A DNA stretch of 63,683 nucleotides, from IMG/VR virus record IMGVR_UViG_3300045988_129598; one strand, 5' to 3'. Below the pieces are notes generated by a model that was given only the letters and a program-made list of their open reading frames with translations, ran no database searches and was not told where the DNA came from. Shown piece after piece: positions 12,573 to 41,900 of the stretch (positions are counted from its first letter, which is position 1; every line of letters starts with the position of its first letter). Both the position numbers and the translations under genes were made by a program. Source of the stretch: a virus.

Positions 12573-13148
12573 TCAAATCTTTAATACGGTAGCAGTTGCC
12601 GTTGTGAGCGTTGCTTTTTTTAGACTCACTCTGGTTGCTTTGGAAGTATTGTAGAATCTCGGATTCGCGCTTGATGGTGCGTATACCACTTGCTTGCCAA
12701 CAGTCGTTACCGAGCTTCCCTCTTGGTACAAAACATCATCGTATTCGACCGCCGATACGGACTCTCCCCTTGGATAAACCGTTGTAGAGCTCGCCGTGTA
12801 GTATACCATTTTACGTGTTGCCGTTCGTTGATAAGTTCCACTGGATGAGGCTTCCAAATAGGTTTTTGTATCAGATGCGCCTTGCTTTGTAACACCGCTG
12901 GTGTTTCCTCTATAAAACGTATCGGGCCAATGTGCCACGCCTATCTTCTTCTCCGACGTTCCCGCCAAATAGACATTGCTGTTCGCTGCATTGTTTCCGT
13001 CAGAATCCGTAAGACTGGACGCAGTATAGTCCATCCAAACCTGGGACGGCGTGTATCCAGTCCCATTCATATCCGTGATGGACGATGCGACGTAATTGGT
13101 ATATAGGGTCGGCAGTTTATCGTAACCTTCGATTGCTCTATGTGCCAT
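12573..13148 (-). CDS. Ser/Thr/Tyr-rich repeat protein, unknown function
   Basis: 191-aa ORF with five Y-x-A-S-S-like repeats (NYVASSITD, DYTASSLTD, YLEASSSGT, YYTASSTTV, VYAPSSANP). Weak RBS. Confidence 0.55.
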   Translation of the reverse strand: MAHRAIEGYDKLPTLYTNYVASSITDMNGTGYTPSQVWMDYTASSLTDSDGNNAANSNVYLAGTSEKKIGVAHWPDTFYRGNTSGVTKQGASDTKTYLEASSSGTYQRTATRKMVYYTASSTTVYPRGESVSAVEYDDVLYQEGSSVTTVGKQVVYAPSSANPRFYNTSKATRVSLKKATLTTATATVLKI

Positions 13149-13406
13149 ACCTTTCGGTGTGGCGAGGACTATCTCACCAAGAAAATACTTCCATTTTGAA
13201 TTTTCTCAGGCCTGCCGCTTTGGCCGAAGCCTACTCCCCCGCCGGGGATAGTCTCTGAACATTACCCTGTTCGGGTCTTAGCTGCGCTGATTGTCCAATC
13301 CTTATCGATTTTTAGAGCATTCGCACTCAGGCTTCTTTCATCCTCATGCTGTAGCTGATAAGGCTCTAAGGAGTTCCCCGCAATTCAACAGGTCCGCGCC
13401 GAGAAT
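13149..13406 (-). other. 258-nt GC-rich structured non-coding region
   Basis: No ORF. Minus sense contains GGC-UUCG-GCC, CCCC-GGC-GGGG, ACCC-GAACA-GGGU, and long-range stems UUAGAGC/GCUCUAA and GAGACUAUC/GAUAGUCCUC. Confidence 0.4.
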
Positions 13407-15287
13407 TTAGTTGAAGGTGATTGTGTCTCCATAAGCTGGCGTGTATGTTGTTGGGACAAATGCCTCACTCGTTCGAAGAAACGTAACATACTTGTCACCT
13501 TCAAGATGAATCCCATAAGTTGACGCCTGCGTAAAATCGGTTACGACTTTGACTTGACCTTTAGTTACTGTGCTGCCGCCAAAGGTCATCGTTTTGACTT
13601 CCAAATATCCAATGTCCGCGCTGTTCGTGGTGAGAGCAGCCGTCTTGACGTAGCCGCCATCAAGCAATTTGATAATCGCGCTTGAAGTGACAAGACTATC
13701 CACATATGCTTTTTTAGCATAAAGATTTTCGATATTGGTGATCTCACTGTTGATGTTGGTGATGTCCGTATCAATATCGAGAACGCTTTTCTTCAAGCCG
13801 TCAATATCTTTAATCGACAGCTCGATGCTTCCGCGAACATCGTTAATTTCATCGGACACGTCGGCTCGAATGGAACTGTCCGTCTGAGAGATTTTAGTCT
13901 CCAGACCTTCTTTGGTGTTCTTGATCTCAGATGTTAGAGATCCTTCCATCTGTGTAATCGTCGAAGACAGCGTGTTCAATTTGTTATGAACGTTTTCGAT
14001 GATCTTGCCGTCGCCAACCGTTAAAGCGGCAGTGATCTGCCCAAGCGTGCCCCCGGGCAGACTTTCGAGATTGACCACCTTGTCCTTGATCGTAAGAACG
14101 CCGTTCACCTCGGTGATAAACTTCTCAAGCAAACTTGCCGCCGCAGCACCGCCTGCACCGCTTCTCTTTGCAGAGCTCGCTGTTGAGGATGTACTTGCAC
14201 TGCTGCCGGTGAGCGTTCGATCTTTCCGAAGCGTGATCTGGTTCGGATCAGTCAACGTATATTGGGTTTTGGAAGGGTCTTTGATGTTGACCTCGATTGC
14301 AGTGCAGATCAGAATCCTCTCGACACCATGAATGGGAGATTTTACTGTGATGGAATCGCCCAGATTAAATGGCCGAACCGTCGGATAGAATCGGTGCAGA
14401 TCGATTGCTTTGATGCTCAATTTAGGAGGAATGCCTTTATAGTTATCGGTCATGTACTTCTCGGCTTTTTCCATCAAAGTTCCCGCATCTGTAATGTCAC
14501 CGAAATCTTCAGTCTTTACAATTCGTCCATAGATAGCAATCGCTTCTGCATTTTCAAGATACTTCCCATTATGCGTGTACTTTTGGGAATCTCCGGCGGC
14601 TTCAATCGTAAGCTTGTCTTTTCCGATCGGAAGTAAAACTGTGAACAGATCTTCTCCTGTCTGCTCATTCATCAAGTCAATCAGGTTCTGTCCAAATTCG
14701 ATCGTTTGTGAAGATGTTGCATTGTAAGACTTCAAATAGTCGATGCATCGAATTCCATTTTCGTATCGAATTCGCAAATATCCGCCAAAGGAGTCGATCA
14801 AGTCAGACTGAATTGCGGAGAATGTTTCTCGATAATTGTCTTCGCCAAAGATATGTGACTCGGCCTTCTCGTCAATCTCAATACTGCCAACTGTGAACTT
14901 TTTCGTATCTTCGACTTGAGCATTGTGGGAATCAATGAGAAGCCGAAAATGCTCCTCGGCGGTCCTTGTCCCTTTTGACGGACCAAAAATGGAATCAACC
15001 AAATAGGCAAGTGTTCCTTCACAATAAACCTTGCGCTGCTTATACGTATCGGCATTATTTCTTAGAACACGACTTGAAAAAATCAGCTCTTCATCACGAT
15101 ATACGTCAATCCACGTCTTCATGGCTGGAAGCATATCGTAAAATAAATGTCTTGGAAGCATGGTAAATTCAACACTTCCGGCCTTGTTGACTTCCATTTT
15201 GATAATCGGACTGATCAGTTGATAATCGGGGTCGGCCCAATCGCTCGCGAAAATAAGCTCGTCGTTTGCATAGAGTCGATAATTCAT
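13407..15287 (-). CDS. tail-associated lysin/Tal-type distal tail protein
   Basis: 626 aa directly after Dit. N-terminus MNYRLYANDELIF...MEVNKAGSVEFTM is typical of siphovirus Tal/prophage-tail-endopeptidase N-domains. Coiled C-terminal part. Confidence 0.65.
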   Translation of the reverse strand: MNYRLYANDELIFASDWADPDYQLISPIIKMEVNKAGSVEFTMLPRHLFYDMLPAMKTWIDVYRDEELIFSSRVLRNNADTYKQRKVYCEGTLAYLVDSIFGPSKGTRTAEEHFRLLIDSHNAQVEDTKKFTVGSIEIDEKAESHIFGEDNYRETFSAIQSDLIDSFGGYLRIRYENGIRCIDYLKSYNATSSQTIEFGQNLIDLMNEQTGEDLFTVLLPIGKDKLTIEAAGDSQKYTHNGKYLENAEAIAIYGRIVKTEDFGDITDAGTLMEKAEKYMTDNYKGIPPKLSIKAIDLHRFYPTVRPFNLGDSITVKSPIHGVERILICTAIEVNIKDPSKTQYTLTDPNQITLRKDRTLTGSSASTSSTASSAKRSGAGGAAAASLLEKFITEVNGVLTIKDKVVNLESLPGGTLGQITAALTVGDGKIIENVHNKLNTLSSTITQMEGSLTSEIKNTKEGLETKISQTDSSIRADVSDEINDVRGSIELSIKDIDGLKKSVLDIDTDITNINSEITNIENLYAKKAYVDSLVTSSAIIKLLDGGYVKTAALTTNSADIGYLEVKTMTFGGSTVTKGQVKVVTDFTQASTYGIHLEGDKYVTFLRTSEAFVPTTYTPAYGDTITFN

Positions 15288-25424: not shown

Positions 25425-27122
25425 TCAGCCAGCAGATTCGACGGACTCAATCGCCATAGCGGAGTACGGCTTAATCAGCGCACCGGAGAAACGGGTTTCA
25501 ATCAGATACTTCATGGCATTGAAATCGATGTCAAAGCCGTCGAACATCCTCACCGAACCGCCATTGTCAGCGCCTACATTGTAGTCGTTTAGGTTGACAA
25601 TTAGGCCGAGCAGATTATGCATTTCGACCTTGCCGCCATTGTTGACCTCACGGGACAGACCTTCCATCGTCGGAACAGTCACGATCTCCTTAACGCGCAG
25701 AACCGTCCTCAGCTTCTCCATCGTATCGTAAATCACGCGGCCGGTGGTGTCCTCAATCAGCAGCATGTCCGTCACAACATCCTCGGTCGTATAGAAAGTC
25801 GGATCGCCGGAACCACGATAGTTCTTGCGGCTCTTGATGATGGCGCGAATGGTCGCCTTGGCGCGATCGGAATCGGAAGCGTTCTGCGCAACCGTCACCG
25901 GAACTTTGATGGTAAACAGATCGGAATCCTTCCAGACAGGGCGGACATGATCCTCGGCGATCTTGTCGTCGCTGGAAGACAGACGGCCATCACCCGTCAG
26001 AATTGCACGGGCGCACTCCTCGTCGAGCATCATTCGCATCTCGATCTTGAGCCATGCGATTACATCAAAGTCGGTAATGTCCAGCACGTCGTCTCGATCC
26101 ATCTTCTGCTTCTTGTAGATGGTCGTCGGATCAGTCGTACGCTTCAGCAGGCTGAAGACTTCTTCCTTCTTAAACTTGCCTTTAATGTAGCCCTTCGCGC
26201 GAGCCTCATCCTCGGTCAGGTCGGCAAACATCGACTTGACACGAGAGAACGGAGTGCGATGAACGGCGTTCATAACCTTCGCCACCCAGTCATCCTTGCG
26301 CTTGATGAACTCAGGCGGGGTATTCAGGTTGTGCGGTTCCGGGAACAACATGCCGACATCCTCAATGCCATGTGCCAAAGCAGCTTCCTTGAGCGAACCG
26401 CAGCGCTTGCCATCGCCGAGAATTTCGGCAAACTCAGCATGAGTCGGGGTGTTTTTTGGGGTATCATTTTCAAAGACATTATGCTTCACTTCTTCGTCCT
26501 CCTTGTTGTCGTCGGCCCCGTCTTCTCCCTTGGAGTCCATAGCCTGACCGACCAAATAGTACACGACGTCCTTCTGTTCCTCATTGAGGGTATTGAAGAC
26601 ATCCTTAACCGTCTTTTCCTTATTGCTGTCTGCCATTTTCTTCTCTTCTTTTTCCGGCTCGTCGGCGTGCTCGAGCGAAATATCCATGTTCGTATAAATA
26701 AGCGCTTCGGTCGCTGCGTCCTCGCCGTGCTGAATGTCCATGTAGTCAATCAAAGCGCCAGGATTCGCACCAGCAAGCACAAGGCTGACTTCCTTAATCG
26801 ATCCATGGAGAACGTCGCCATGATCCTGCTTGAGACCATTGGCATAAATAGAAAGCGCACAAATATCGCCATGCCGGATCAGCTCCTTAGCATGGCGTGC
26901 ACTATCGGTGTTGTTGAACGTGCAGTAGGCGTACACACCTTCATCCTTATTTTGAAGGAGCGCGTGTCCGAGCACGTTTTCGGGGTTACTGTGGCTGTGC
27001 TGCCAAACCAGCGGAACAGTGTGGCCGTCATCACCTGCAAAAGCATTGCGTCGAATCGTTCGGCCATCACTGCATCGGAGGTCGTTCTTGGTTGCCCAGC
27101 CGCTAAAGTCGTATTTACTCAT
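25425..27122 (-). CDS. prohead protease (HK97/S78-like) - linker - major capsid protein fusion
   Basis: N-terminus VPLVWQHS...LSIYANG...IKEVSLVLAGANPGA gives the protease motifs. An acidic/Lys-rich linker and a capsid-sized C-terminal part follow. ATG at 27122 follows AAAGGAGA. Confidence 0.75.
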   Translation of the reverse strand: MSKYDFSGWATKNDLRCSDGRTIRRNAFAGDDGHTVPLVWQHSHSNPENVLGHALLQNKDEGVYAYCTFNNTDSARHAKELIRHGDICALSIYANGLKQDHGDVLHGSIKEVSLVLAGANPGALIDYMDIQHGEDAATEALIYTNMDISLEHADEPEKEEKKMADSNKEKTVKDVFNTLNEEQKDVVYYLVGQAMDSKGEDGADDNKEDEEVKHNVFENDTPKNTPTHAEFAEILGDGKRCGSLKEAALAHGIEDVGMLFPEPHNLNTPPEFIKRKDDWVAKVMNAVHRTPFSRVKSMFADLTEDEARAKGYIKGKFKKEEVFSLLKRTTDPTTIYKKQKMDRDDVLDITDFDVIAWLKIEMRMMLDEECARAILTGDGRLSSSDDKIAEDHVRPVWKDSDLFTIKVPVTVAQNASDSDRAKATIRAIIKSRKNYRGSGDPTFYTTEDVVTDMLLIEDTTGRVIYDTMEKLRTVLRVKEIVTVPTMEGLSREVNNGGKVEMHNLLGLIVNLNDYNVGADNGGSVRMFDGFDIDFNAMKYLIETRFSGALIKPYSAMAIESVESAG

Positions 27123-28359
27123 TGGGTCTCCTTTCTTGAGTTTGAATCTGTTCGTTTGCTTCTTCCTCAATCACCTGATCGGAAGCGTTGAGGTTTTTGT
27201 TGCGCAGCTTGTCCGCATCCGGGTCTTCCGAAGGCTTGAAGCCGATAATCTGCCGGATTTCATTCGAGCTGAGAATTGCATTGCGCGTGAGCTTGTCTGC
27301 CGTCTCCGCGATCTGATCCGCAGGCATGAGTTTGAATGGCTCACGGAAGAATGCAATAACCTGCCCTTGAGATCGGGCAGTTTTGGTCAGGAATTTTCGC
27401 TTCATCTCATCTGCAATCGCAGAAAGAATCGGCTCAATGGTTCGGTTATAGTAGTTAAGCATGGTCTTTTCATCGGCCGTTCCATCGAGAACCGTCGTTG
27501 TCATGCTCAACTGGCTATAAACCATGTTTGTCAGATACTCGATTTGACTCATCAGGTTATTCTCAAGCGAACGGTTGAGCTGAACGACTTTTTCCGTACC
27601 GTCCGTATAAGCGATTCCATACTTACTTCCAGCCAGCTGCATTTCGATGTCTTTTCGCCGCTGCTCCGCCTGAGCTTTGCGAGCCTCGGATTTTACGACG
27701 TAGGGCAGCTGAATAATTAGGTCCAGCTTTCCAGCGCCGTTCTGTTCATCGATCTGATCAAGTAGATTAAGCTTTCGAACAAGCCGCTGCATGGTTGAGT
27801 TGGGTTCATTCATCACGGCAAAGAATGGATTCTCGATAATGGCGACGGACTTTTTGGGGAGTATAATATCTTCCTTGATGCCTGTCTGTTCATTGTAAAG
27901 ATTCACTCTGACGTGCTGGGGGAACCAATCCACAATCTTGCCAACTCGCATCGAATTGACGTCAAATACATTGCTTCCGGTCTTCGTAATATCATTCGTG
28001 GTATCGACTGGAACAATCGCAACGCAGCCCTCGTCCAACATCGACTGAATCACATCCTGCATGAAAGCACGTCCTGTCTGGTCGATGTTGGCAGAAACGG
28101 TCAGACACTCATTCAGACCGCTTTTTCGGGCAAATAAAAAACGGCCATCGTCGTCGAGCTGTACATGCTCAAACAACGTGGCCGCCGCATCGATTGAAAT
28201 TCTGGTGTAGATGGCGGAGACAATCGATCGCTCATTGCCTCTCGTATATCGAGGTCGATCTGGTCGAGTTCCGCCGTAATACCCTCCGTATTGAACCTTC
28301 GGAGGGTCTTTGTTCAGGAATGCATTCCATCCATGCTGTAGTTTGTCTAAGAAGTTCAT
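27115..28359 (-). CDS. portal protein
   Basis: 414 aa between the terL region and the protease-capsid gene. ATGA-type overlap with the next gene. Confidence 0.7.
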   Translation of the reverse strand: MNFLDKLQHGWNAFLNKDPPKVQYGGYYGGTRPDRPRYTRGNERSIVSAIYTRISIDAAATLFEHVQLDDDGRFLFARKSGLNECLTVSANIDQTGRAFMQDVIQSMLDEGCVAIVPVDTTNDITKTGSNVFDVNSMRVGKIVDWFPQHVRVNLYNEQTGIKEDIILPKKSVAIIENPFFAVMNEPNSTMQRLVRKLNLLDQIDEQNGAGKLDLIIQLPYVVKSEARKAQAEQRRKDIEMQLAGSKYGIAYTDGTEKVVQLNRSLENNLMSQIEYLTNMVYSQLSMTTTVLDGTADEKTMLNYYNRTIEPILSAIADEMKRKFLTKTARSQGQVIAFFREPFKLMPADQIAETADKLTRNAILSSNEIRQIIGFKPSEDPDADKLRNKNLNASDQVIEEEANEQIQTQERRPNE

Positions 28360-28574
28360 TTATCTTTTTCGTCAGAGACAACTTCGATGCTGAGAATATC
28401 GGATTCGTCGAAATCAAAAACTCGCCCATCAGGAAAATCGACAACGATTGAGTTTTCACCGTTCTCGTTTTCATCCCCAGGACTGAAATAGTAGACGGAG
28501 CCAAAAAATTCTTCGCCATCAATCGTGACGATCCGAACGTTTTTTCCGTCATACTTCTCCAGATGCACAATCAA
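28356..28574 (-). CDS. small acidic protein (candidate immunity to the upstream toxin-like domain)
   Basis: 72 aa, very acidic (DGEEFF, GDENENGEN, FDFDESD, SDEKDK). Its start abuts the stop of gene 28575..29060. Confidence 0.55.
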   Translation of the reverse strand: MIVHLEKYDGKNVRIVTIDGEEFFGSVYYFSPGDENENGENSIVVDFPDGRVFDFDESDILSIEVVSDEKDK

Positions 28575-29060
28575 TCACTCCTTATTTCTCGCCGGAATAA
28601 TATGCGCTCCGGCTTTTCCATAATGGATGATTCCATATCGAGTCTTGGATTCCTGCCTGGTTTCTTCATCGACATATATTCCGAATACTCTGGAAGCTCT
28701 GACCCTTTCTTTGTTATTAAATTCGCCATGTCTATTCGTGAGTGCCTTCCCAGTTCCATATAGATCAGAAATCAGGGTCTGGCAGTCCTTAAGATTGCCC
28801 AGTATATAGCTCTTTCCCTCTTCGAAATTGTGACTGCCCTTTATATGCTTCGTCTGATTACTGACATTCACTTTAACCGAAATCTTTCCGGCTTCAAGGG
28901 CTTGCATTACCTCTGAATTGGGATTGCGTTTATGATGGGTTTCTCGATTATCCCTGCATCGTTCTCGGCCTTTAGCTGTAAGCGTTCCATCTGCATTTTG
29001 AAATCGGCGAACTCCCCACTTCATGCCTAGAATACCATGATGATAGAGTTCGTTTTCCAC
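28575..29060 (-). CDS. protein with polymorphic-toxin-type-50-like C-terminal domain
   Basis: GTG start after GAAGGTGA. C-terminus QTKHIKGSHNF..GKSYILG...LYGTGKAL...KERV...TRYGIIHYGKAGAHIIPAR matches the remembered PT50/Ntox50 pattern (..IIHYSKKGAHIVPARP). Confidence 0.6.
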   Translation of the reverse strand: MENELYHHGILGMKWGVRRFQNADGTLTAKGRERCRDNRETHHKRNPNSEVMQALEAGKISVKVNVSNQTKHIKGSHNFEEGKSYILGNLKDCQTLISDLYGTGKALTNRHGEFNNKERVRASRVFGIYVDEETRQESKTRYGIIHYGKAGAHIIPARNKE

Positions 29061-29073
29061 TTCTTCACCTTCT
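28987..29073. repeat. 87-nt direct repeat (copy 1) flanking terL
   Basis: 85 of 87 nt identical to 31348..31434. Encodes the shared N-terminus VENELYHHGILGMKWGVRRFQNADG plus the RBS. Confidence 0.9.
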
Positions 29074-30825
29074 TTATTCAAAAGAATCCTTATTTGCTTT
29101 ATAGGCCACATAAGCATCTATAAGAGCTGCCACAACGTCAATCTTAGCCTCGTGGCGCTTCTTCATCAGCTTTCGGTTGCCATTCGTGTCCTCAAGGGTA
29201 ATTGCGTTTCCCAAACAAAATGTCGTGATTCCCTGATCAAAGATGAGCAGTCTCTCCTCGGCAAACAACTTAATCTCCCCAAGCGGAACAGTCTCTGTCT
29301 TCGCGCCCTGAATGACCTTCTCGATGCCGTAAACACCATTCTCTCTGGCCCAGCGTTCAACAAACTCCTTCGCATTGTACGGGTCGTAACCAAACGCTCG
29401 AACGTCATAAGCCACTTCATTTGTCAGCCATTGATCAAGATCGTCGTATACGGCTTCCATGGTAATAACCGTCCCCTCAAGAACAATCAGGCTGCCATCC
29501 TCGATGAATTGATCATACTTAAACCTCAATGCACTCGGCAGCTTCGCAAGTGTAATTGAACTGATGTAGCATCTGGCCTTCACACCAAAAGCGCCGCCGC
29601 GCAGCGGAAACAGAAATGTAAAAGCGCAGAAGTCATCACCCTGCGAAAGATCAGCGCCCATCGCGCACGGCATGCCGTCAAAGCTCTGATGCGGATGCGG
29701 TATCGTTTCCTCGTATGTGAAGAAGTAGGTATATCCCTCCATCGGGATACCGAATCGCTTGGCGAGAATATCATTTCGGGTTGCAGGGGCTTTTTCCGCT
29801 CTCTCTACATCCAGCTGGTAGGTCTCGTAAGTTACGGTCTTTCCAATGTTGGGATTCGCTTTCATCCACATTGCCGGGTTGGAGACTTCTTTTACATCAT
29901 CGAGTCGGTAATACCAGATTGACACACCCGGGTTATAATACTCTCCTTTGAGAATACTCAACAGTTCCATTTTGATTGTGTCGCCGCTGCCGTTACGCAC
30001 TGTACCCTCAGAACTTGTTGCAATAATCAAGTAGTCGTCCAGTTTACTCGCACCCTGCTCAATCGCGCCAACAACGTCCTCTCGGACATCGCCACTCAGC
30101 CATTCATCAACAGTTGACACCTTAGGTCGATAGCCTTGAAGCTTGTCAATGTCCATTGGCAGAACCTCAAGAACTGAGTTGGTCAGAAAGTTCTCAATAC
30201 CTTTCTTGGTCGAAGCCAACTTGACACGATTGGCCTTTGAGCCTGTCGTGTTCTGAAGACTGCCTTCCGTCAAAAACTTGAACATCGGCCCTCTGGCACG
30301 AGTAATAGCCGACTTGAACGGCTTGAGAATTTCCTCCGCCTGTCTCATCGTGGGTGCTGTCGCAATCTGACTAGTCGTCGAATTGTTTGCCGTCAACGAA
30401 TACGACTGATGACAGGTATCGTAAAGCGTTTTTGCCGCGCCTCGTCCGACGATAAGATACTGCTTCTTTGTCAGGCGCCTTTTGATAAGCTTATGAACAT
30501 ATTGTCCGCCATGCCCATCAGGATTTGGCTCATAGACTTCCCGCTCAACATAGTAATACCAGCAGAAAACCTGCTCTGCCCATAGCTTGAAGCTGTCGAG
30601 CATGTGAAAGTCCGAACCGTCTGTCAGCACCAACTCGTTTTCGCAAAAGTCAATAAAATGCTCTACGGGCAGCGGGTCGTAATAAATTCCCGGATTCGCA
30701 ATCAGCGCGTCGATTCGGTTCATCTCCATTGAAATTGTCTGACAGACTGGAATTTCACCTCGAAGAACCGCATCCCGAAACAGACCATAATACTTAGGAA
30801 CAGCGGTGTTGGAAAGCCTACTCAA
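29074..30825 (-). CDS. terL: terminase large subunit
   Basis: 583 aa. Walker A context YLIVGRGAAKT, with a nuclease-sized C-terminal half. TTG start per the track (TTGA overlap with the upstream stop). Confidence 0.85.
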   Translation of the reverse strand: MSRLSNTAVPKYYGLFRDAVLRGEIPVCQTISMEMNRIDALIANPGIYYDPLPVEHFIDFCENELVLTDGSDFHMLDSFKLWAEQVFCWYYYVEREVYEPNPDGHGGQYVHKLIKRRLTKKQYLIVGRGAAKTLYDTCHQSYSLTANNSTTSQIATAPTMRQAEEILKPFKSAITRARGPMFKFLTEGSLQNTTGSKANRVKLASTKKGIENFLTNSVLEVLPMDIDKLQGYRPKVSTVDEWLSGDVREDVVGAIEQGASKLDDYLIIATSSEGTVRNGSGDTIKMELLSILKGEYYNPGVSIWYYRLDDVKEVSNPAMWMKANPNIGKTVTYETYQLDVERAEKAPATRNDILAKRFGIPMEGYTYFFTYEETIPHPHQSFDGMPCAMGADLSQGDDFCAFTFLFPLRGGAFGVKARCYISSITLAKLPSALRFKYDQFIEDGSLIVLEGTVITMEAVYDDLDQWLTNEVAYDVRAFGYDPYNAKEFVERWARENGVYGIEKVIQGAKTETVPLGEIKLFAEERLLIFDQGITTFCLGNAITLEDTNGNRKLMKKRHEAKIDVVAALIDAYVAYKANKDSFE

Positions 30826-31421
30826 ATATAACCAGACCGATTAAGCATCGATCGTCCTTTCAGCCATGCGTCATATCGAGCCTGCTCTCTCTGAGCCTCT
30901 CGTTCCTCATTCTGCTTGGCGTCGTAAGCCGAAGTAAGGGTATAGGCGGCCGTCTCTTTTTTGATTCGGTCATTATAGAGCTGTAAATCTTTGGAGCTCA
31001 TTCGCTTCGGGTCGGCATGGGAATCGATCAAGTCCCTCGCTCGCTTGTCATCTGCTTTGGTTTTCTCCTTAGCCTGCTCTTCTTTGAAGTTATCGACTAT
31101 TCGGGAAACCAACCACTTCCCACTTGCCTCTATTGCGCCTAGAACGGCTTTTTTCCCAGCCTGAACAAGTCGATTGGGCTTTGGGGCAGTTAGCTGCTTG
31201 TATAGCTGCTCATTTCTCAATCGGTTGATTGTATCCTGAAGCTCTTTGTCTGACATCTCGGAAACTTTCTTTTTTCGAGGCGCATCGGCAGAGCCTGTAC
31301 TCGTTCCCGAATCTCTATACCGAGACTTTCCGGCTTCAGTCAGACTTCCATCCGCATTTTGAAATCGGCGAACGCCCCACTTCATGCCTAGAATACCATG
31401 ATGATAGAGTTCGTTTTCCAC
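30822..31421 (-). CDS. paralogue of 28575..29060 N-terminus with unrelated charged helical C-terminus
   Basis: GTG start. The first ~29 aa are identical except one residue to gene 28575..29060. The remainder is Lys/Glu-rich. Confidence 0.6.
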   Translation of the reverse strand: MENELYHHGILGMKWGVRRFQNADGSLTEAGKSRYRDSGTSTGSADAPRKKKVSEMSDKELQDTINRLRNEQLYKQLTAPKPNRLVQAGKKAVLGAIEASGKWLVSRIVDNFKEEQAKEKTKADDKRARDLIDSHADPKRMSSKDLQLYNDRIKKETAAYTLTSAYDAKQNEEREAQREQARYDAWLKGRSMLNRSGYI

Positions 31422-31434
31422 TTCTTCACCTTCT
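31348..31434. repeat. 87-nt direct repeat (copy 2)
   Basis: See 28987..29073. Confidence 0.9.
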
Positions 31435-31439
31435 CTCGT

Positions 31440-31748
31440 TTAATACTCCTTTTGGCAATGCCTATATAGTCGCCAAGCGCTCTCGTCGATCTGTTTATTG
31501 AGTGCATCCAAAACATATGAACTCGACGGCGGGTCGAAAAGTTTCTGAGTACGCAAAGAAATATACTCCTTGCTGCCCTCGACGACGAACGGGTCTTCCG
31601 ACCATTCGCTCCATACAGCGCCGGAATCGTGAATTCGGAACGGAACCTCCGGTCCAACACCCATATCTTGCAGCGTGGCGAATGCTCCATTGATGTATGT
31701 AATGATCCTTAAATCGAATGATCTATCCTCGGCCACCACGCCGACCAT
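31440..31748 (-). CDS. hypothetical protein (packaging/head module)
   Basis: 102-aa ORF between HNH and terL. Function not recognised. Confidence 0.55.
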   Translation of the reverse strand: MVGVVAEDRSFDLRIITYINGAFATLQDMGVGPEVPFRIHDSGAVWSEWSEDPFVVEGSKEYISLRTQKLFDPPSSSYVLDALNKQIDESAWRLYRHCQKEY

Positions 31749-31793: not shown

Positions 31794-32201
31794 CTACCAT
31801 AATTTTGTGTCGCCCGGTGTCCGCTCAATCGGAGGTAAAATTAAAAGCGACTCATCGCCATAATGAATCGCTTTGTGGGTTCTGTCCGAGACACAGATCA
31901 GATACTCGGGGTCATAAATCCAGTCTCGGTCTTCAAGAATATCATCAAGCGTAATCGGATTCATATGATGGATCACTAGACCTTTTCCAATTTCGCGGTC
32001 CTCCATTCCAAGATCGCACCCCTTATCCCGTAATATCACTTTGCTTCGCGCTGACTGCCATTGTTTCGACTGATAGAACGTCTGATTGAAATGCCGGTTA
32101 AAGCCAAACATTGCCGCTCCAACTTGTCCGGCCAGTTTCAAATATTGATAACGTTCCTCGAATGTCTCCAATCTCCGAAGTTCTCTATAGCATCGAATCA
32201 T
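31794..32201 (-). CDS. HNH endonuclease (terminase-associated type)
   Basis: CDLGMEDREIGKGLVIHHMNPIT...THKAIHYG gives the H-N-H core. Position next to the packaging genes. Confidence 0.8.
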   Translation of the reverse strand: MIRCYRELRRLETFEERYQYLKLAGQVGAAMFGFNRHFNQTFYQSKQWQSARSKVILRDKGCDLGMEDREIGKGLVIHHMNPITLDDILEDRDWIYDPEYLICVSDRTHKAIHYGDESLLILPPIERTPGDTKLW

Positions 32202-32551
32202 CGACCGTCGTCTCCGATTTCGTCAACCACACAGGCACCCGAAATATCAGCATAACTCTGGAATGCCTTGATAGCGTTTGCGTAAAGCTCCTCCGTCCTC
32301 CTCTGAGACTCGAGCGCCTCCGTCTTCGCCCTAAGCATCGCATTCTCGCTAATCAGGCGATCTCTCTCAAGCTGTTCTCTTGTCGATCCCAGCTTCAAGT
32401 AGAACGATATCACCTGAGAGGAAGCTGTCCCCTCTCTTAGTTGGCGTTCTGCCAAGTCAACCGCAAGATCGATCAACTCGTTCTCACGCTGCTCTGGTGT
32501 AAGAGCAGGTGGTCGCGCACGTGCCACCGGTTTGCTAACTCTTTCTGACAC
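32198..32551 (-). CDS. hypothetical; candidate small terminase subunit
   Basis: 117 aa, first gene after the candidate cos region, coiled-coil C-terminus. Assignment is by position only. Confidence 0.4.
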   Translation of the reverse strand: MSERVSKPVARARPPALTPEQRENELIDLAVDLAERQLREGTASSQVISFYLKLGSTREQLERDRLISENAMLRAKTEALESQRRTEELYANAIKAFQSYADISGACVVDEIGDDGR

Positions 32552-33070: not shown

Positions 33071-35881
33071 TTAAGATTTAGGTAAGTTATCGTTAAGAGC
33101 ACGAATAACAGTGCTTGCTGAGACACCTAAAAAACTGGCAATTTCATCATTTGTGTAGCCGTTTGCACTCAATCGTTTAGCTCTTGCAATTTTAGCAGCA
33201 GGCATGACCGAACTATTTCTCGGCATCGCATAGGATTTTACGACATCCATGTCTGCATTCTTTAGAATTTGGGTGAGTTTGTTGTGTGTAATTGCGCCAG
33301 CTTGAATGGCTTCCCATTCTTTTGGCGTAATCTTAATACGCGTTTTCTTTGCGCCTACTCGAAGACGCGCTTCTGTCAAAGATTGTCCTTTGATCTTCTT
33401 TACTTTATCGGCATCCTGCCTGTATTCAGGATTTGCATCCATCTTGGCTTTAAAGTTGTAATTGGCAAGAAGCTGGGCTTGACGTTCTAGTGGCGCGTTC
33501 TTTAGTGCTTCGTTGAGTTGGGCGTTAAGACTTGCTACTTCCTGAGCATAGGCTTGCTTTGCGGAGGGATTGTATTTTAAAGGCTTTACGCTCAAACTTT
33601 CTTTTCTAGCTTCATTTGCGAGTGCTTTCAATTTATTCGCATGTACTGCATACGCGCTTTCCATGACGGTTCCAGAAGATAAAGAAAAGGCGTCCTTCGT
33701 CTCGTACATCTTAGTGCTTTCGAGAGTCTTGGGCGTCTCTTTGTATATTGGTTTTCCATCTGCGTCGCGCTTGACTTCGCCAGTCTTTGTATTTTTAACT
33801 GGCTTGTTATACGTTTCTCCTGTTTCGGTGTAAAGCTTTTCGCCGGTTTCGGAATCGATGTAGATTTTCTTCTTCTTTCCGGTTTCTTTATCTTTTACAA
33901 CGATTCCGTCTTTGCGATCTGGCACTCGTTCTGTGCTACTCGCTTTTGAAAGTAATGTAGAAGCTCCCGATTTAGCTTTGCCTTGGTACTTAATCTTTAG
34001 CTCTGCGATGTCGTTATCTTTATACGACTGTTGATAATTCAGCTCGTGCTTTTTTGCATCAATAACGACCATTGAATGCCGAACAGCTCTAGCTAATTCA
34101 TCAGGAGTAGGGTTCTGAAGGCTCATATCTGTGATGAGATTGGTAATCATTCCCATCTCTCGTCCTTTTTCCTGATCTGTCATGACGTGCATTCCAGGAT
34201 ACTTAGGATAGGCTTCCTTAGGATCGAAATTTTTTAAGCCTTGCAGAGCAGGAGCGGTCTTCATTTTTCCGTCATTATTCGGAATGACCAGAACACTATC
34301 TCCATCAAAATCCGCGCCACTTAGCTTTTCTGCTGTCTTCGCGTTAATGACAACAGCGTCAATGGGATTGTTTCCTATGATCTTTCTGCCTGCACTCGAT
34401 TCGCTATTATTGACTACACATTCTGGAATCTCGAACCTTCCCGCATGTGGAAATCTGATTAAAACAACGCTCTCGCCATCATGAAAATTAGGCGCATAGA
34501 TCTCTTTTTCCGGAATGTCCGGAGATGGAAGAATGACCTGTGTTCTTTGTCTCGGTAAAGCGGCAGCCTTTAAGTGTACAGCGGCAGCATCACAATCGTC
34601 GGCAAAACTATCGAGCAACTGTTTCTTAACTGCGGGGTTCGTGGTAGCAAGAATATCTTTGAATTCTTCTGCCTTGGCATCATACGCGAGCCCAAGTTGT
34701 TTTTTAGCTAATGCGTATGTCTGTTTAGAAAGTACCTGCGACGAAAGGGATTTGCTCCATTCATTCCAGTTTCCTTCTTCATTGACAATATTAAGCGCCG
34801 ATAATTTCTCTTCTCCTGTTTTGGGATCGATATAATGCCGTTGAGCACGAACGAGCTGGTCATCCATTTTGATAGTTGCACCAAATGGATTTACCGGGTC
34901 CTTTTCCATCTTTTTGAAGACTTTTTCCGATTTATCTCTCGTTTTGTTTGTATTATAGATTATATCATAGCCATCGGGAATATCGTCTGAGTAGACAGCC
35001 ATGCCCTTCATATACTTATTTCCGTCAACAGCAATTCGAACCTGAGCATAATTAGCATTACCAAGAGAAATATCAGGCACTCCTCTGCGAAGCTCAATTA
35101 GGCCGTCTTTTTGGGCACCACCCGTTCCGTCATCATTTGTATAGTTCACATAGACTCGCTTGCTGTCAATAGAGACTGGCGGTTCAAGAGCTCTAGCTCT
35201 AGTACCATTATCCTCCATATAAAAATTTGTCGGGAGACTGATTTTTTCTTTGTTATCAACAAGTTCTTTATACCCGACATCATTTTTAGTTAGGACTTTG
35301 ATACTTGTTTTGTTATTCGTGCCCATCTGATCGACCTGAACGTATTGGATTTTATATCCTTGCTGCTCAAGTAGAGCGATGGCTGTTCGCATTCTTGTAG
35401 AGCTTACCGGCATAGCAAACTGATGCTCTGTTCCGCTGCCGACATCGATATATTTTTTCTCATCTACCGCAGCTTTAAGTTGGTCAGCCAGTGCGTTTGT
35501 CATGTTGTTCCGCTCTTTGAGATGCGGATCGAGCAATGCACGAACAGAACTTTCATTCTTACCCATGCGTTGGCCAATGGCGACATTGGAATATCCTTTT
35601 TCTTTCAACTTCCAAGCCATTGCCGATTCTTCTTTTCGGATTTCGGCTTTTGCAATGGATAGCTTGGCGCGAAGCTGACTGGTGGTCATTTCCATGCTAT
35701 CCGCGATCTGTTTCTCACTGAGTCCGTTTTTCCGCAACTTCGTAACATGCGAAACAAAGTTTCCGTTTCTCTGATAGGGATTCTCGCCAGATCCCCAAGG
35801 ATATCTTCCGCTATGTCGAGGGGTTCCGTAGTGTTCGAGCTCATCGGTTTCTTCTTGCCCAATAAGTTTTCGATCGTCCAT
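33071..35881 (-). CDS. two-barrel (YonO/RdRP-like) RNA polymerase candidate with N- and C-terminal HTH domains
   Basis: SGADFDGDSVLVIP (DFDGD codons 34298-34312) preceded by VVLIRFPHAGRFEIPECVV. Upstream YAQVRIAVDGNKYMKGMAVY (34994-35008 = KGMAV). HTH-like segments at both ends. ATG at 35881 follows GGAGGG. Confidence 0.6.
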   Translation of the reverse strand: MDDRKLIGQEETDELEHYGTPRHSGRYPWGSGENPYQRNGNFVSHVTKLRKNGLSEKQIADSMEMTTSQLRAKLSIAKAEIRKEESAMAWKLKEKGYSNVAIGQRMGKNESSVRALLDPHLKERNNMTNALADQLKAAVDEKKYIDVGSGTEHQFAMPVSSTRMRTAIALLEQQGYKIQYVQVDQMGTNNKTSIKVLTKNDVGYKELVDNKEKISLPTNFYMEDNGTRARALEPPVSIDSKRVYVNYTNDDGTGGAQKDGLIELRRGVPDISLGNANYAQVRIAVDGNKYMKGMAVYSDDIPDGYDIIYNTNKTRDKSEKVFKKMEKDPVNPFGATIKMDDQLVRAQRHYIDPKTGEEKLSALNIVNEEGNWNEWSKSLSSQVLSKQTYALAKKQLGLAYDAKAEEFKDILATTNPAVKKQLLDSFADDCDAAAVHLKAAALPRQRTQVILPSPDIPEKEIYAPNFHDGESVVLIRFPHAGRFEIPECVVNNSESSAGRKIIGNNPIDAVVINAKTAEKLSGADFDGDSVLVIPNNDGKMKTAPALQGLKNFDPKEAYPKYPGMHVMTDQEKGREMGMITNLITDMSLQNPTPDELARAVRHSMVVIDAKKHELNYQQSYKDNDIAELKIKYQGKAKSGASTLLSKASSTERVPDRKDGIVVKDKETGKKKKIYIDSETGEKLYTETGETYNKPVKNTKTGEVKRDADGKPIYKETPKTLESTKMYETKDAFSLSSGTVMESAYAVHANKLKALANEARKESLSVKPLKYNPSAKQAYAQEVASLNAQLNEALKNAPLERQAQLLANYNFKAKMDANPEYRQDADKVKKIKGQSLTEARLRVGAKKTRIKITPKEWEAIQAGAITHNKLTQILKNADMDVVKSYAMPRNSSVMPAAKIARAKRLSANGYTNDEIASFLGVSASTVIRALNDNLPKS

Positions 35882-35885
35882 AACT

Positions 35886-36533
35886 TTAACCCTCCATAAG
35901 TTGCTTCTGGACAAAATCGCTTGCGTATACGATCTGGTCCATTACTGATAGTATTCTGTCGGGCTCTGGTTGTAGAACCTGAACATCATTGTTTTGATAG
36001 ATCCGCAATTCGACTTGCGTATGCTCCGGGTGCGCATCTTCGATTTCGCCGTACTCCAAGAAGAACAGCGCAGCATATTGCTCAAGCTGCTTCATAGATA
36101 CAGGACTAAGACCTGTTTTGAGATCATGGATGCGAAGAATATCATTTTCAAACTTGATCGTATCTGCTGTTCCAAAAGCCACCGAACTGTAAGCCAGCAC
36201 AATTTCGGGGTCCATTCTTAGAGCAATGGCATCATTTACATAATTCATCAAATTCGGAAAAATATAATCGATGTCAATCGCTCGACGGGGAATCCGCTGA
36301 TCTCGAATTAAAGAAAACAACACGCCATTCTTTTCAGATTTAGTCAGCTTAATATGGGCTTGAATCCGATCCTTTGCATACAAATGGACGGCTGTTCCAA
36401 GTTCGGTTGCATAGTAGGCTTTCAGCTTGGCTGTCAGAATATCATTGAGATTATCTTTGTCTACCCAATGATAATTACTTGGGCTAATGATGGCATGTTT
36501 GCCTTCAATCGCCAAATGCTGCTTGTAATGCAC
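35886..36533 (-). CDS. PD-(D/E)xK-like nuclease (hypothetical)
   Basis: GTG at 36533 follows AGAGGAGG. The ILRIHDLKTG context resembles RecB/Cas4-type D-x-K cores. Assignment is weak. Confidence 0.45.
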   Translation of the reverse strand: MHYKQHLAIEGKHAIISPSNYHWVDKDNLNDILTAKLKAYYATELGTAVHLYAKDRIQAHIKLTKSEKNGVLFSLIRDQRIPRRAIDIDYIFPNLMNYVNDAIALRMDPEIVLAYSSVAFGTADTIKFENDILRIHDLKTGLSPVSMKQLEQYAALFFLEYGEIEDAHPEHTQVELRIYQNNDVQVLQPEPDRILSVMDQIVYASDFVQKQLMEG

Positions 36534-38664: not shown

Positions 38665-38911
38665 GCTTCTTCTCCTTTTCAAGCTCAAGGTACTTATTCA
38701 GATACCAGATTGCCTTTGAAATATCTTCTGTTCCGTTCTTCTTTTTATGACGGTAGAGGTACTTAAATGCATTACAGACGCAGAAACTTTGCACGGCATC
38801 GATACCCTGCGTCTCCGCCATAATATCAATGCACTCAAACTTCCCTGTCTTGTAGTGTTCGGGGTGGTTTACATGCTCTTTAGCTCGGGGCAAATCTGAA
38901 AGCTTATTCAT
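38651..38911 (-). CDS. DUF3310-like protein
   Basis: VNHPEHYKTGKFECIDIM...FCVCNAFKYLYRHKKKNG..DISKAIWYL matches the remembered DUF3310 pattern. ATG at 38911 follows GGAGGG. Confidence 0.6.
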   Translation of the reverse strand: MNKLSDLPRAKEHVNHPEHYKTGKFECIDIMAETQGIDAVQSFCVCNAFKYLYRHKKKNGTEDISKAIWYLNKYLELEKEKKHENV

Positions 38912-41900
38912 CCCTTGGCCCTCCGATGCTTTCTCCAAGGAACCATTCGATGTCACCAAATCTTGATAAGCTTGCAACTGCCTCATCGACCAGTTTTCGG
39001 TAATAGGATTCATCTACCGTGTCCTCCTTTTTCAGTTCCCGCAGAAATTCGGCTTCTCGCCATCTATAACCCTTGGTTCCCGTTACAGAATCAAACTTTT
39101 CGCCGGAATCCCTAACCAGTCTCGCACCGCCTGTTCCCGGAAGAACAGGACAGAATTGGCCACATTTACCGATGAATATCCGATTATGCTCGTCCTCTCC
39201 AAGATTCTCGTCAAAATCCAGATAGATAGCGGTCTTGACGCTCTTGGTCTGACAATAATCATTGAACACAATGGGTTCTTTCGAGAACAGGGTCTTGAAC
39301 ACATACGGTTCCGCAAACTGCTTACCGGTCGCCGTCCACTGTCCAGGCGCTTCAGGATCATCCTCAGCCAATTTAGCAATATAAACTGCATTATTGACCA
39401 AACAGATTTTCTCGAAGATGTGCTCAATCTCGAAATCGTACCCATACCGTTTACCGAAAGCGATAATCTCTTTCTGCAATTCCGGAGACGGATTAAGCAC
39501 TTTAATCGAATCGGTCTTGATATGGATAACTTCTCCGCCACGCTCATGAACATAATTCAACAGGTCGATCATGAACAACGCGCCGCGCTTGGCAACGATG
39601 TTATCGATATTGCGTGGATCGTGGAACGCATTGTCGAAGTGCGCAGCGGTCAAACCGTATACCGAATTGATCGCAATCTTGAGCGCCTGCGACAGCTGCT
39701 TAGCTTTGGCCGGGTCAGTCAAATACTTGGCCAGCTTTCCACCAAACATCTTTCCGGCCTTCTCGAAATCTTTATGTTTGATCGCGATTCGTGTATTAAG
39801 CAAGTCGTTGAATACCACGGTGTATTGGCCAAATAGATACTCGCTCGTAATACTATGCGGGTGCATACTGGCCACGTCAAATGTAATTGTTCGACCATAC
39901 ATTCCGGGTTTGGCCCATACGAATCCTCCTTCACCAGGGTCAAAGCCGCCATACGAGGATGTTGGTTTCTTCACAATATCAGGTTCTATGCTTTCAGGAT
40001 CGCGTCCATCCCAATTAAACCCTACGAGCTTATATAGTTCATGCCCTGAGCCTTTCTTGAAATCGTATCCTGGAAAATACGGAAGATCACTTTTTGCTTC
40101 GCCGAAAGGCTCCCTCATCATCTCAGAAAAGTTTGCTTTAAGAAAATCCTTTTCCGGAGAATCATCCGGCAGTTGAATAGGATCTGCCAGATTGCGATAA
40201 ACGAAAGAACTCTGAGGATTTTTAACATTTCCGAATATCAATCGGGCAGTCAGCTGATTTGTCGTGTCATTCACTGTTCCACCTGCGATATCTGCAAGGA
40301 TCTCTCTAGCCACGAAATCCGCCTGCCGAGCATTCCAAACAGCCTCCGTTGCAATAACGTCGTTGTCACAATACTCAGCAACCAACTGCCATTTGTCTTC
40401 GGGCACAGGCTGATCCCAAGGTAAGCCAAGCTCTTGATGGTGAATTCCAAGATCAATCTCGAATTTCTTCAAACTCTGCTTCGTGCTCGAAAAGTCATAG
40501 ACATCCGTGTAACTCACATTGTATGCTTGCCCAAACATCGCATTTCGATCGCCAGAAATGATTGCCTGACTGATATCATAAAGTTCTTCGATGCTCTTTC
40601 CGAGATATCTGGCATAAAGGATATGATTATCATATCGACGACAGTTAAAACCGATCAGCTTCTTTTGCATCAGTTCCCCAACATCTTGCGGACTTGGGTT
40701 AATCATCCGAACACATTTGCATTCTTTGCCCGGATACTTCCAGTTGACAAGGAAAAGATTCGGAAATACCTCGATATCAAAAAACACGAGCGGCTCTTCG
40801 GCGTAAGTGCCGGGCTCACTCGTGTCTTCACTCTTGTATTTCATTTTCATTGCAATCTTCGTGCATCGTTCGCTCTGATGCGTGCTTCCCGCAGCAAAGG
40901 CCAGGACAGCAGGTTTCATGTCGCTCACGTCGTAGGCCATCCCGCTTTCGTAAGCCTTATCGAGAATATCATTGATAAGACCAATCGAGGAAGCGGTCGA
41001 GCCTACGATTTCTTTACGAAGATGGCGGTTAATCAATCGCCTTAGTCCTTTTTCGCTTTTGACAGCTTTTTCATTGACCATTGGCTTCTCCTCTTTCAAC
41101 GGAAGTCCGCTCGTAATCGTGGCAATCGGAATATCATTGCACTTCGTTAGCCTACGTCGGCAGCTGCTCTTGCCTGTGAACACTTTGACTTCAATGTTCG
41201 GCGCATAAAGCCGTTGAAGCTGCTTCGGGTCGCCTCCCTCATAAATATAATGCAGATGAATGCCCGCTCCACCCTTACTGAACTCGGCATACGTTTTTGG
41301 CCACTTTGATGCCGCTTCGAGATTTCGCTCAACGGATTTCTCGCCTGAATCGTCTTTCAGGTCAAAGTCAATCACGATATGATTCTCAGGCAGCATGACA
41401 TAATGCAGCTTATCTGTGCAAATATCAGCCAGAGTTGTCGTCACCTTGTCCCATGCGATAAGCGGCGTGCCATCCTCAGTTGCGTATTGGGCAGGATAGT
41501 TCGCATAAATATCATCCAGCAAAGATTCGGTGCAATCGAGTTTCAGCCACGATCCTTTTTCCTTTGGCGCTTCCTCCTTGGCTTGCTCTTCCGGTCGAAA
41601 CTTCTTTCGGATAAACCCTGAATAATATTTCCGTACTTGCTTTCCATCGATACGCTCCATGTCGGCATAATGCTCGAAATAGTTCTTCAGCTCCTCTCGA
41701 AATTTGTACATCGGCAGCTTGGCTTCGGTTCCACTATCTTCGCAATATTCCTTGTACATCGCATAGGCAATTTTCAGAGTCGTGCAATCCTGCTTATCGA
41801 AGATATCATACTTATCCTCGACAAAGTTGAAGAAGAAGTCGGTCTTGTACATCATGTCCATCGGCCGATAGGCATTGTAATAGTCTTTTCCCATCTCCTT

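Follow-up and report, generated by a model that had tools for sequence, protein, structure and literature searches.

The 63.7-kb window analysed here, which is the whole 63,683-nucleotide (nt) stretch of the IMG/VR virus record IMGVR_UViG_3300045988_129598, encodes between its terminase large subunit gene (terL) and its portal gene a protein of 161 amino acids (aa) (28575..29060, minus strand) that is composed of an N-terminal DUF7211 tag, a linker and an Ntox50 RNase domain, and that is followed by a gene for a small, acidic, Sm-like protein (28356..28568, minus strand). We read this locus as a phage-borne polymorphic toxin-immunity cassette in which the DUF7211 carrier serves as a virion-incorporation tag, with a probability of about 0.6 for the combined statement. 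The parts of this reading differ in strength. The two genes, judged from their sequences, very probably form a toxin-immunity pair; an initial annotation, made from the sequence alone, had proposed such a candidate pair in the head module, and this proposal is borne out by a full Ntox50 domain and by the link of the small gene's family to Ntox50 under either MuF, a virion head protein, or DUF7211. Delivery of the toxin in the virion through the DUF7211 tag, which is argued by analogy, is put forward at somewhat less than even odds.

Probable toxin and immunity genes at the terL-portal junction

The Ntox50 family (PF15542) was matched by Pfam at residues 65–156 of the 161-aa protein (28593..28868, minus strand), over profile positions 2–92 of 92, with an E-value (E) of 2.2e-25 and a score of 89.7 bits vs a curated cut-off of 22.2. 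The toxin-like C-terminus described in the initial annotation, ending in ...GIIHYGKAGAHIIPARNKE, is as stated there, and the PT50/Ntox50-type domain that it suggested proved to be full length and above threshold, with intact catalytic residues. The Ntox50 signature consists of H, S, K, T, H and K residues and a C-terminal HxVP motif (Zhang et al. 2012); the conserved positions in the toxin are H72, K83-S84, E118, T140, H146, K149 and H153-I-I-P156, the last of these forming HIIP, a V-to-I variant of HxVP. The phmmer matches of the toxin in the PDB are the C-terminal domain (CTD) of YxiD from Bacillus subtilis 6633 (9v8i_B, E 1.5e-8) and MafB2-CT from Neisseria meningitidis (8hhj_B, E 4.8e-7), and in alignments with these two and with phage homologues Q69, H72, G82, S84, G151 and P156 are invariant, with H153 (equivalent to YxiD H528), K149, T140 and E118 nearly so. 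H528A is an inactivating mutation of YxiD, and experiments show YxiD-CTD to be a tRNase that depends on metal, kills E. coli and is neutralised 1:1 by a Sm-like immunity protein (PMC12700104).

The AlphaFold2 (AF2) model of the toxin has a predicted local distance difference test score (pLDDT) above 90 over residues 48–158, and Foldseek returned 9v8i_B (E 8e-8, root-mean-square deviation 1.6 A) and 8hhj_B (E 3e-5) as its only significant PDB fold matches, the structural alignments to YxiD-CTD and MafB2-CT giving 35% and 30% identity and template modelling (TM) scores of 0.80 and 0.69, respectively. The three proteins share the toxin family, the fold, an HxVP-type motif and the catalytic His residues, whereas YxiD and MafB2 are delivered from bacteria by the type VII (LXG) or the Maf secretion system and not by phage. 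From profile, alignment and model together, the 161-aa protein is thus predicted to carry a BECR-fold Ntox50 RNase domain with its catalytic residues intact. The protein has an isoelectric point (pI) of 9.66, and homologues 76–98% identical to it are kept at 159–161 aa in many independent contigs. Its gene starts at GTG 29060, 14 nt past the terL stop codon and with an AAGGTGA Shine-Dalgarno sequence in front; the longest reading of the open reading frame (ORF), 180 aa from ATG 29117, is less likely, as it overlaps terL and the database homologues are 159–161 aa long. Ntox50 domains have been met in phages before, being noted in Clostridium phage phiC2 by Zhang et al. 2012 and listed among the MuF toxin domains by Jamet et al. 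2017 (PMC5576092).

The small downstream gene had been described in the initial annotation as a strongly acidic 72-aa gene starting at the toxin stop codon. Its acidity (19 D/E vs 6 K/R, pI 4.05) and the ORF itself are real, and a TTG directly after the toxin TGA (start at 28574) would give a 72-aa product, but the start is most likely another one: AAGGAG at 28583–28578 is spaced only 3 nt from the TTG but 9 nt from GTG 28568, and the database copies of the protein all have 70 aa, so GTG 28568, 6 nt downstream of the toxin gene, is taken as the true start of a 70-aa product. The protein belongs to phrog_1865 (E 1.4e-14) and has no Pfam match, and no NCBIfam model matches it, the toxin or the 199-aa protein discussed below. 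In a collection of 50,697 phage records, 26 Staphylococcus records and Streptococcus phage Javan253 gave tblastn matches to it, and these phages are the toxin-matching Staphylococcus phages and Javan253, bar one extra Staphylococcus record. In SN10, pSp_SNUABM-J and Javan253 the immunity gene begins at the stop codon of a MuF-Ntox50 gene or no more than 3 nt from it, and in S. pseudintermedius phages the homologues lie at or within a few nt of the MuF-Ntox50 gene end; the Ntox50 domains of S. pseudintermedius phage SN10 and of Javan253 are themselves homologous to that of the window (E 3e-25 and 2e-19), as are the small immunity genes directly downstream of them.

The same adjacency was observed in bacteria. 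A survey with one genome per species gave 18 loci with a relative of the immunity gene, 17 of them assessable, and an Ntox50 ORF ends right at the immunity-gene start in 13 of the 17. In a Eubacterium metagenome-assembled genome (MAG; L018) a DUF7211-like-Ntox50 gene is followed by three tandem immunity genes, in a Ruminococcus MAG (L006) three orphan Ntox50 C-terminal fragments are interleaved with four immunity genes, and in S. intermedius (L004) three immunity copies stand with toxin remnants; such arrays are hallmarks of polymorphic toxin systems. In L023 a DUF7211-Ntox50 gene, 38% identical, occupies a different slot upstream of the connector gene and is still followed by an immunity homologue (E 6e-22). 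Members of the immunity family sit directly after Ntox50 genes under three carrier types and in orphan cassette arrays, and because the family accompanies Ntox50 toxins whatever the carrier, the 70-aa protein is interpreted as the cognate immunity protein.

The immunity family comprises 1312 clusters at 90% identity by family profile, the named members are all from Firmicutes, and many of them bear the NCBI name 'LSM domain protein'. The AF2 model of the window member (pLDDT 84) consists of one helix and five strands and matches Sm, LSm and Hfq folds at TM 0.6–0.7 (best E 1.9e-3), and the family profile gave a weak LSm8 match (E 0.016); YxxD, the partner of YxiD-CTD, is likewise Sm-like; 9v8i_A, which is YxxD, lay outside the top 50 fold matches of the immunity model, and the two proteins share only the fold class, according to the crystal-structure description in PMC12700104. 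Several further arrangements of the family were observed. The orphan Ntox50 fragments of the Ruminococcus sp. MAG (JAJQGO010000019.1, L006 2600-4200) are 86 aa long, and their array adjoins a cas2 gene and a CRISPR array; in a Companilactobacillus sp. (L013 3593-4195) an immunity-family domain is fused to an unrelated N-terminal domain of ~135 aa in a 201-aa ORF with no Ntox50 upstream; and stand-alone immunity genes without toxin occur at L007, L019 and L020.

The DUF7211 tag and its family

The start of the toxin (ELYHHGILGMKWGVRRFQN) was assigned by Pfam to DUF7211 (PF23847, residues 2–19, E 6e-9, 35.5 bits vs a cut-off of 27), and the motif as a whole covers toxin residues 2–34 (ENELYHHGILGMKWGVRRFQNADGTLTAKGRER; 28959..29057, minus strand; motif hidden Markov model (HMM) E 7e-24). 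The same motif opens a 199-aa protein encoded across terL, directly upstream of it (30822..31421, minus strand; 35.9 bits vs 27). This N-terminal likeness of ~30 aa between proteins on the two sides of terL had already been seen in the initial annotation and is even stronger at the DNA level, where a 96-nt direct repeat, 95% identical, joins the starts of the two genes and spans in each case the ribosome-binding site and 27 initial codons, those of the toxin gene at 28978..29073 and those of the 199-aa gene at 31339..31434, both on the minus strand. Of all features of the locus, this common start proved the most informative. Two relatives with portals 93–94% identical (L032 and L033) carry the same toxin, with a toxin tag that differs from that of their own pre-terL gene, and the 96-nt repeat is absent from them; the repeat is therefore ascribed to recent gene conversion between paralogues in the window lineage. 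In the monomer model of the toxin the tag is predicted to be disordered (pLDDT <50), which is consistent with a peptide that folds on a partner. The motif, which is basic and Trp/Gly-rich, is conserved at the protein level from Actinobacteria to Clostridia phages. A PDB sequence search with the motif gave no match, and the literature searched held nothing on DUF7211 or on the motif string. The N-terminus of the window's RNA polymerase (ELEHYGTPRHSGRYPWGSG, ELEHYGTPRHSGRYPWGSGENPYQR) was considered as a third copy of the tag and is a look-alike only (motif HMM E 7.5, nothing in Pfam).

The window belongs to a supercluster that unites Lactococcus phage 1706 and its relatives, Faecalibacterium phage FP_oengus and actinophages of the Streptomyces BI, Arthrobacter AM/AU/AW, Gordonia DJ, Rhodococcus CC and Microbacterium EL groups (bioRxiv 10.1101/842583). 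The common genes are those for HNH, connector, terL, portal, protease and a YonO-like polymerase, the last being the signature gene of the supercluster. With a variant of the motif, tblastn hit 749 places in 239 phage records (Arthrobacter 95, Gordonia 55, Streptomyces 54, etc.), and these genus counts nearly equal those of the records with DNA similarity to the terL-portal region of the window, so the tag follows the head/packaging machinery and not the host group. The terL of the window matches orf8 of 1706 (E 9e-225) and its portal matches orf9 (E 2.5e-105). Between the connector (orf6) and terL (orf8) of 1706 lies orf7, a 462-aa protein with two DUF7211 copies, labelled 'structural protein' in its database record; the 199-aa protein of the window matches it (phmmer E 1.3e-10) with conserved synteny, and a second motif, MSxxELxxxxxRLxxExxY, is common to the 199-aa protein and its relatives and reads MSxxSLQNRVKRLQAEQQF in orf7. 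The orf7 label presumably goes back to virion mass spectrometry, in keeping with the practice of the laboratory concerned. Of the seven DUF7211 genes of phage ReqiPoco6, six lie between terL and portal, and one of the seven is labelled a virion structural protein by similarity to 1706 gp07. An assignment of the 199-aa protein as the small terminase subunit (terS) is unlikely, as a 117-aa gene orthologous to 1706 orf4 precedes the HNH gene and the Oengus DUF7211 gene follows terL.

A fusion to the portal was observed in two distinct portal proteins from three contigs, one found in two samples (L043 5995-7617, identical to L116 and to L117 1346-2974) and the other in L118 (1340-2995), whose C-terminal extensions open with the motif HLAHHGVKGQKWGV[QR]NGPPYPI and continue as two different tails of ~110 aa, that of L118 being His-rich (HGKPKLHPFGNHGEHAHDYEW) and without a Pfam match. 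By their sequences, these are read as portal-DUF7211-cargo fusions. The C-terminal crown of the portal faces the capsid interior.

The DUF7211 family is large and variable. A 45-aa motif query recovered 23,234 clusters at 50% identity (E<=1e-3). Among 80 IMG/VR phages with related portals, 76 carry DUF7211 ORFs (165 in total, 0–5 per locus), located before terL, between terL and portal or just past the portal, and further contigs hold 3–5 copies in the same module. A core copy (cluster 0, 65 members, the counterpart of the 199-aa protein) has its end no more than 150 nt upstream of terL in 65 of 77 loci, and the terL-portal slot is either empty or filled by 1–3 accessory copies, the C-terminal parts falling into 37 unrelated clusters in the 80 phages. 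DUF7211 thus marks a hypervariable, multi-copy gene family whose members occur only in the packaging/head module of one phage supercluster. Many metagenomic proteins hold 2–5 DUF7211 copies 150–400 aa apart (e.g. P0129, P0132 and P0136 of P0129-P0278), internal copies usually with a conserved H-S about 8–10 residues upstream, and the motif, whole or in part, forms the C-terminus of some proteins; these multi-copy proteins resemble concatenated units, or possibly polyproteins cut at the motif.

The cargoes recognised by Pfam are Ntox50, Gln_amidase, DUF4258 (weak), GNAT, sigma-70 region 3/4 and CW_7 cell-wall-binding repeats, the last in 5 of 108 multi-copy DUF7211 proteins; hydrophobic or Gly-zipper segments occur in many members. 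Gln_amidase, a papain-fold glutamine deamidase toxin, was detected at E 8.6e-9 and 4.1e-8 in representative sets and at a borderline 23.3 bits in L081, and a DUF7211-GNAT gene fills the slot that in L023 holds the toxin-immunity pair. In L026 (8499-9127) a 137-aa DUF7211-DUF4258 (weak) protein stands before a 72-aa acidic protein that has no relation to the Sm-like family, and the sister phage L025 (8664-9121) has an 85-aa tag-less toxin fragment with a 67-aa homologue of that acidic protein, which by sequence looks like a second toxin-immunity type on the DUF7211 carrier. A 327-aa DUF7211 protein (L036 2004-2987) was considered for an ADP-ribosyltransferase cargo on a by-eye likeness (YRST ... 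STS ... QEA) and gave negative results in Pfam and PHROGs. No Ntox50 cargo on DUF7211 was found among cultured phages.

The family shares with polymorphic toxins a single N-terminal module with alternative C-terminal toxin domains, an immunity gene directly downstream whose adjacency is kept across carriers and genome slots, and orphan cassette arrays, which occur in L006, L018, L004 and L025 and not in the window itself; the window shows the 96-nt gene-conversion tract in the tag-coding part. With capsid-targeting tags it shares a short conserved terminal peptide on diverse cargo encoded with head genes.

Gene order and other features of the window

Nearly all genes of the window lie on the minus strand. 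In the order of transcription, a YonO-like, RdRP-like (RNA-dependent RNA polymerase-like) single-subunit RNA polymerase of 947 aa with a DFDGD motif and helix-turn-helix domains (33071-35914, minus strand; phrog_4291) is followed by two small ORFs, the 117-aa gene (32198-32551), the HNH endonuclease (31794-32201), the head-tail connector (Phage_connect_2, 31440..31748, minus strand; Pfam PF24829, E 9e-21), which is a conserved neighbour of the core DUF7211 gene, the 199-aa gene, terL (29074..30825, minus strand; Pfam TerL_ATPase/TerL_nuclease, phrog_9) with a DUF7211 gene on either side, the 161-aa gene, the small acidic gene, the portal (27115..28359, minus strand; Pfam Phage_portal, phrog_12) and a prohead-protease/capsid fusion (25425-27170). 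The same arrangement is present on a second, circularly permuted contig of 63.6 kb. Both the toxin and the immunity gene sit at the late terL-portal junction, and the immunity stop codon overlaps the portal ATG (ATGA). Promoter-like sites for independent immunity expression were not above shuffled expectation, with none inside the toxin gene, and the two genes, with no detected promoter of their own, are embedded in the late packaging operon. No phage tRNA genes able to replace cleaved tRNAs were found.

The absence of a MuF-like part, remarked on in the initial annotation, holds in the head module and the toxin protein by Pfam annotation and elsewhere in the window in every frame by an ad hoc HMM built from MuF-Ntox50 proteins. 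The window encodes a tyrosine integrase (10477-11655), so this gut phage is temperate.

Several other features were observed in the window. Rfam placed a group I catalytic intron (RF00028, 58 bits over the full model; 13145-13468, minus strand) where two tail-region ORFs meet (12573-13148 and 13407-15287, the second of which has a Prophage_tail endopeptidase domain), and a tail gene is probably interrupted here by a self-splicing intron. The window further encodes an anaerobic ribonucleotide reductase NrdD with ATP-cone (56663-58804, minus strand, E 2e-188), a D5-like primase/helicase of 1330 aa (38904-42896) and a 548-aa protein with a GDSL esterase domain (6086-7732), which is probably a tail fibre/esterase as in the Rhodococcus relatives.

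Proposed virion delivery and competing explanations

All MuF-toxin phages are temperate (Jamet et al. 2017, PMC5576092), and the window resembles them in being a temperate tailed phage with the toxin gene in the head/packaging module by the portal and with interchangeable cargo domains. It differs in that a MuF domain (PF04233/PF06152-type) is replaced by a DUF7211 tag of ~34 aa as carrier in a toxin of only 161 aa, in that the gene stands between terL and portal rather than after the portal, and in that DUF7211 is restricted to a different phage lineage, in whose genomes it occurs in multiple copies. Since neither the protein nor any frame of the window has a MuF match, the toxin is not a member of the MuF family, and it probably works like one. 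In phage T4, the internal proteins IPI-III and Alt carry a capsid targeting sequence, for which encapsidation and proteolytic removal of the tag have been shown (PMC3012670). The DUF7211 proteins are like these in the short conserved N-terminal peptide on diverse small effectors encoded with head genes, although the sequences are unrelated, T4 is a myovirus with a scaffolding core whereas the window is an HK97-like siphovirus with a protease-capsid fusion, and the encapsidation role of DUF7211 is proposed by analogy from the genes. ORF7 of 1706, Rhodococcus ReqiPoco6/ReqiPepy6 and Arthrobacter Circum gp7/gp9 present the orthologous packaging module with a DUF7211 protein between connector and terL; unlike the window toxin, their proteins are core or accessory non-toxin members.

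In the mechanism proposed, the immunity protein would form a 1:1 complex with the toxin while virions are being made and cover its RNA-binding face, and the phage's own late translation would therefore be spared. The DUF7211 tag would bind the portal or the procapsid interior, so that the toxin may enter the head as a substitute for, or a companion of, the core DUF7211 structural protein, and would then leave the capsid with the DNA into the next cell, where, free of immunity, it would cut tRNA or other RNA. The recipient may be shut down or handicapped in the way proposed for MuF toxins (competitor killing, or an arrest of growth upon lysogenisation), or host functions may be disabled early. 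New cargoes may be gained by recombination in the conserved tag-coding sequence, as the 96-nt repeat would illustrate.

A number of observations weigh against this reading. The toxicity, RNA target, neutralisation and packaging of the 161-aa protein are all properties that we infer, and the label 'structural protein', taken for 1706 orf7 from its database record alone, covers the core paralogue and not the toxin-bearing copy. The portal fusions score 25–26.8 bits vs the DUF7211 cut-off of 27. No sequence link of the immunity protein to YxxD or MafI2 was found (9v8i_A at E up to 10). An injected general tRNase would harm the incoming phage too, no immunity promoter that would protect lysogens was detected, and the MuF toxin delivery on which the proposal is modelled is itself still a hypothesis (PMC5576092).

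The main rival explanation is an intracellular module of toxin-antitoxin type that is never packaged, in which DUF7211 would be irrelevant to trafficking and the pair would serve addiction, abortive infection/superinfection exclusion or late host shutoff by an RNase tuned by its inhibitor. The compact architecture of a toxin followed by a small acidic inhibitor suits such a module, BECR RNases occur also in classical toxin-antitoxin systems (PMC3482391), the orphan immunity genes at L007, L019 and L020 do without a toxin, and packaging of the toxin is inferred only. We nevertheless consider it unlikely, as the genes are part of the late terL-portal operon, where codons overlap or abut and promoter-like sites do not exceed chance, and for this reason would be silent in lysogens; as the order of toxin first and immunity second is that of polymorphic toxins; as the same pair is fused elsewhere to MuF; and as the tag is conserved from Actinobacteria to Clostridia phages and is common to a protein annotated as structural.

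There is little probability that DUF7211 proteins are instead released at lysis and act from outside in a bacteriocin-like or cell-wall-associated manner, with the motif as a surface/peptidoglycan-binding or export element. The CW_7 repeats, the hydrophobic or Gly-zipper segments and the basic, Trp/Gly-rich motif would be in keeping with this, but the 161-aa toxin lacks a signal peptide and any receptor-binding or translocation domain, the genes occur in the packaging/head module alone rather than in the lysis module, the portal C-terminal fusions put the motif inside the capsid, and the motif, being present in phages of both Actinobacteria and Firmicutes, tracks the portal/terL lineage and not the cell-wall type of the host. 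More improbable still is a decayed or domesticated, non-toxic Ntox50 remnant beside an unrelated head-module ORF, since, common as decaying morons are in phage genomes and despite the Ntox50 fragments of L006 and L004, the full-profile match, the conservation of all catalytic positions, the confident fold prediction, the constant length of the homologues and the specific link of the small gene to Ntox50 elsewhere all speak against it. The last two explanations both fit the data poorly.

Returning to the toxin-immunity cassette with a virion-incorporation tag, a wider version of this reading, held more tentatively than the cassette itself and below even odds, takes DUF7211 as a portal- or procapsid-binding loading tag with which a large supercluster of siphophages of Gram-positive bacteria, including abundant human-gut relatives, may pack changeable small effectors (RNase and deamidase toxins, acetyltransferases and a sigma factor) that are injected with the DNA. 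The window cassette would then be a single cargo among those of a general effector-delivery system, which would evolve through recombination within the tag-coding sequence, and the tag would be a functional analogue of the T4 capsid targeting sequence and of encapsulin cargo peptides.

Neither the Ntox50 toxin family nor its occurrence in phages is new, and phage polymorphic toxins are already a known concept. Three elements appear to be undescribed in the literature searched, which are the DUF7211 carrier, the family-wide pattern of a core structural copy, hypervariable cargo copies, portal fusions and restriction to one supercluster, and the role of the 'LSM domain protein' family as Ntox50 immunity. 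To our knowledge, phage polymorphic toxins have so far been known only as MuF fusions. At the present locus the toxin-immunity module known from these fusions stands on a second carrier, far smaller, which is common to an annotated virion component, is fused to the portal in some phages and is found in tens of thousands of protein clusters, many of them from gut metagenomes. The immunity assignment gives a function to a widespread family, where Ntox50 had been listed without an immunity family (Zhang et al. 2012). If the tag is a head-loading signal, it would explain the hypervariable gene slot across a whole phage supercluster, it would supply a short peptide with which foreign proteins could be packaged into Gram-positive phages, and virion-delivered toxins would become directly testable in cultivable phages such as 1706, ReqiPoco6 and the SEA-PHAGES isolates.

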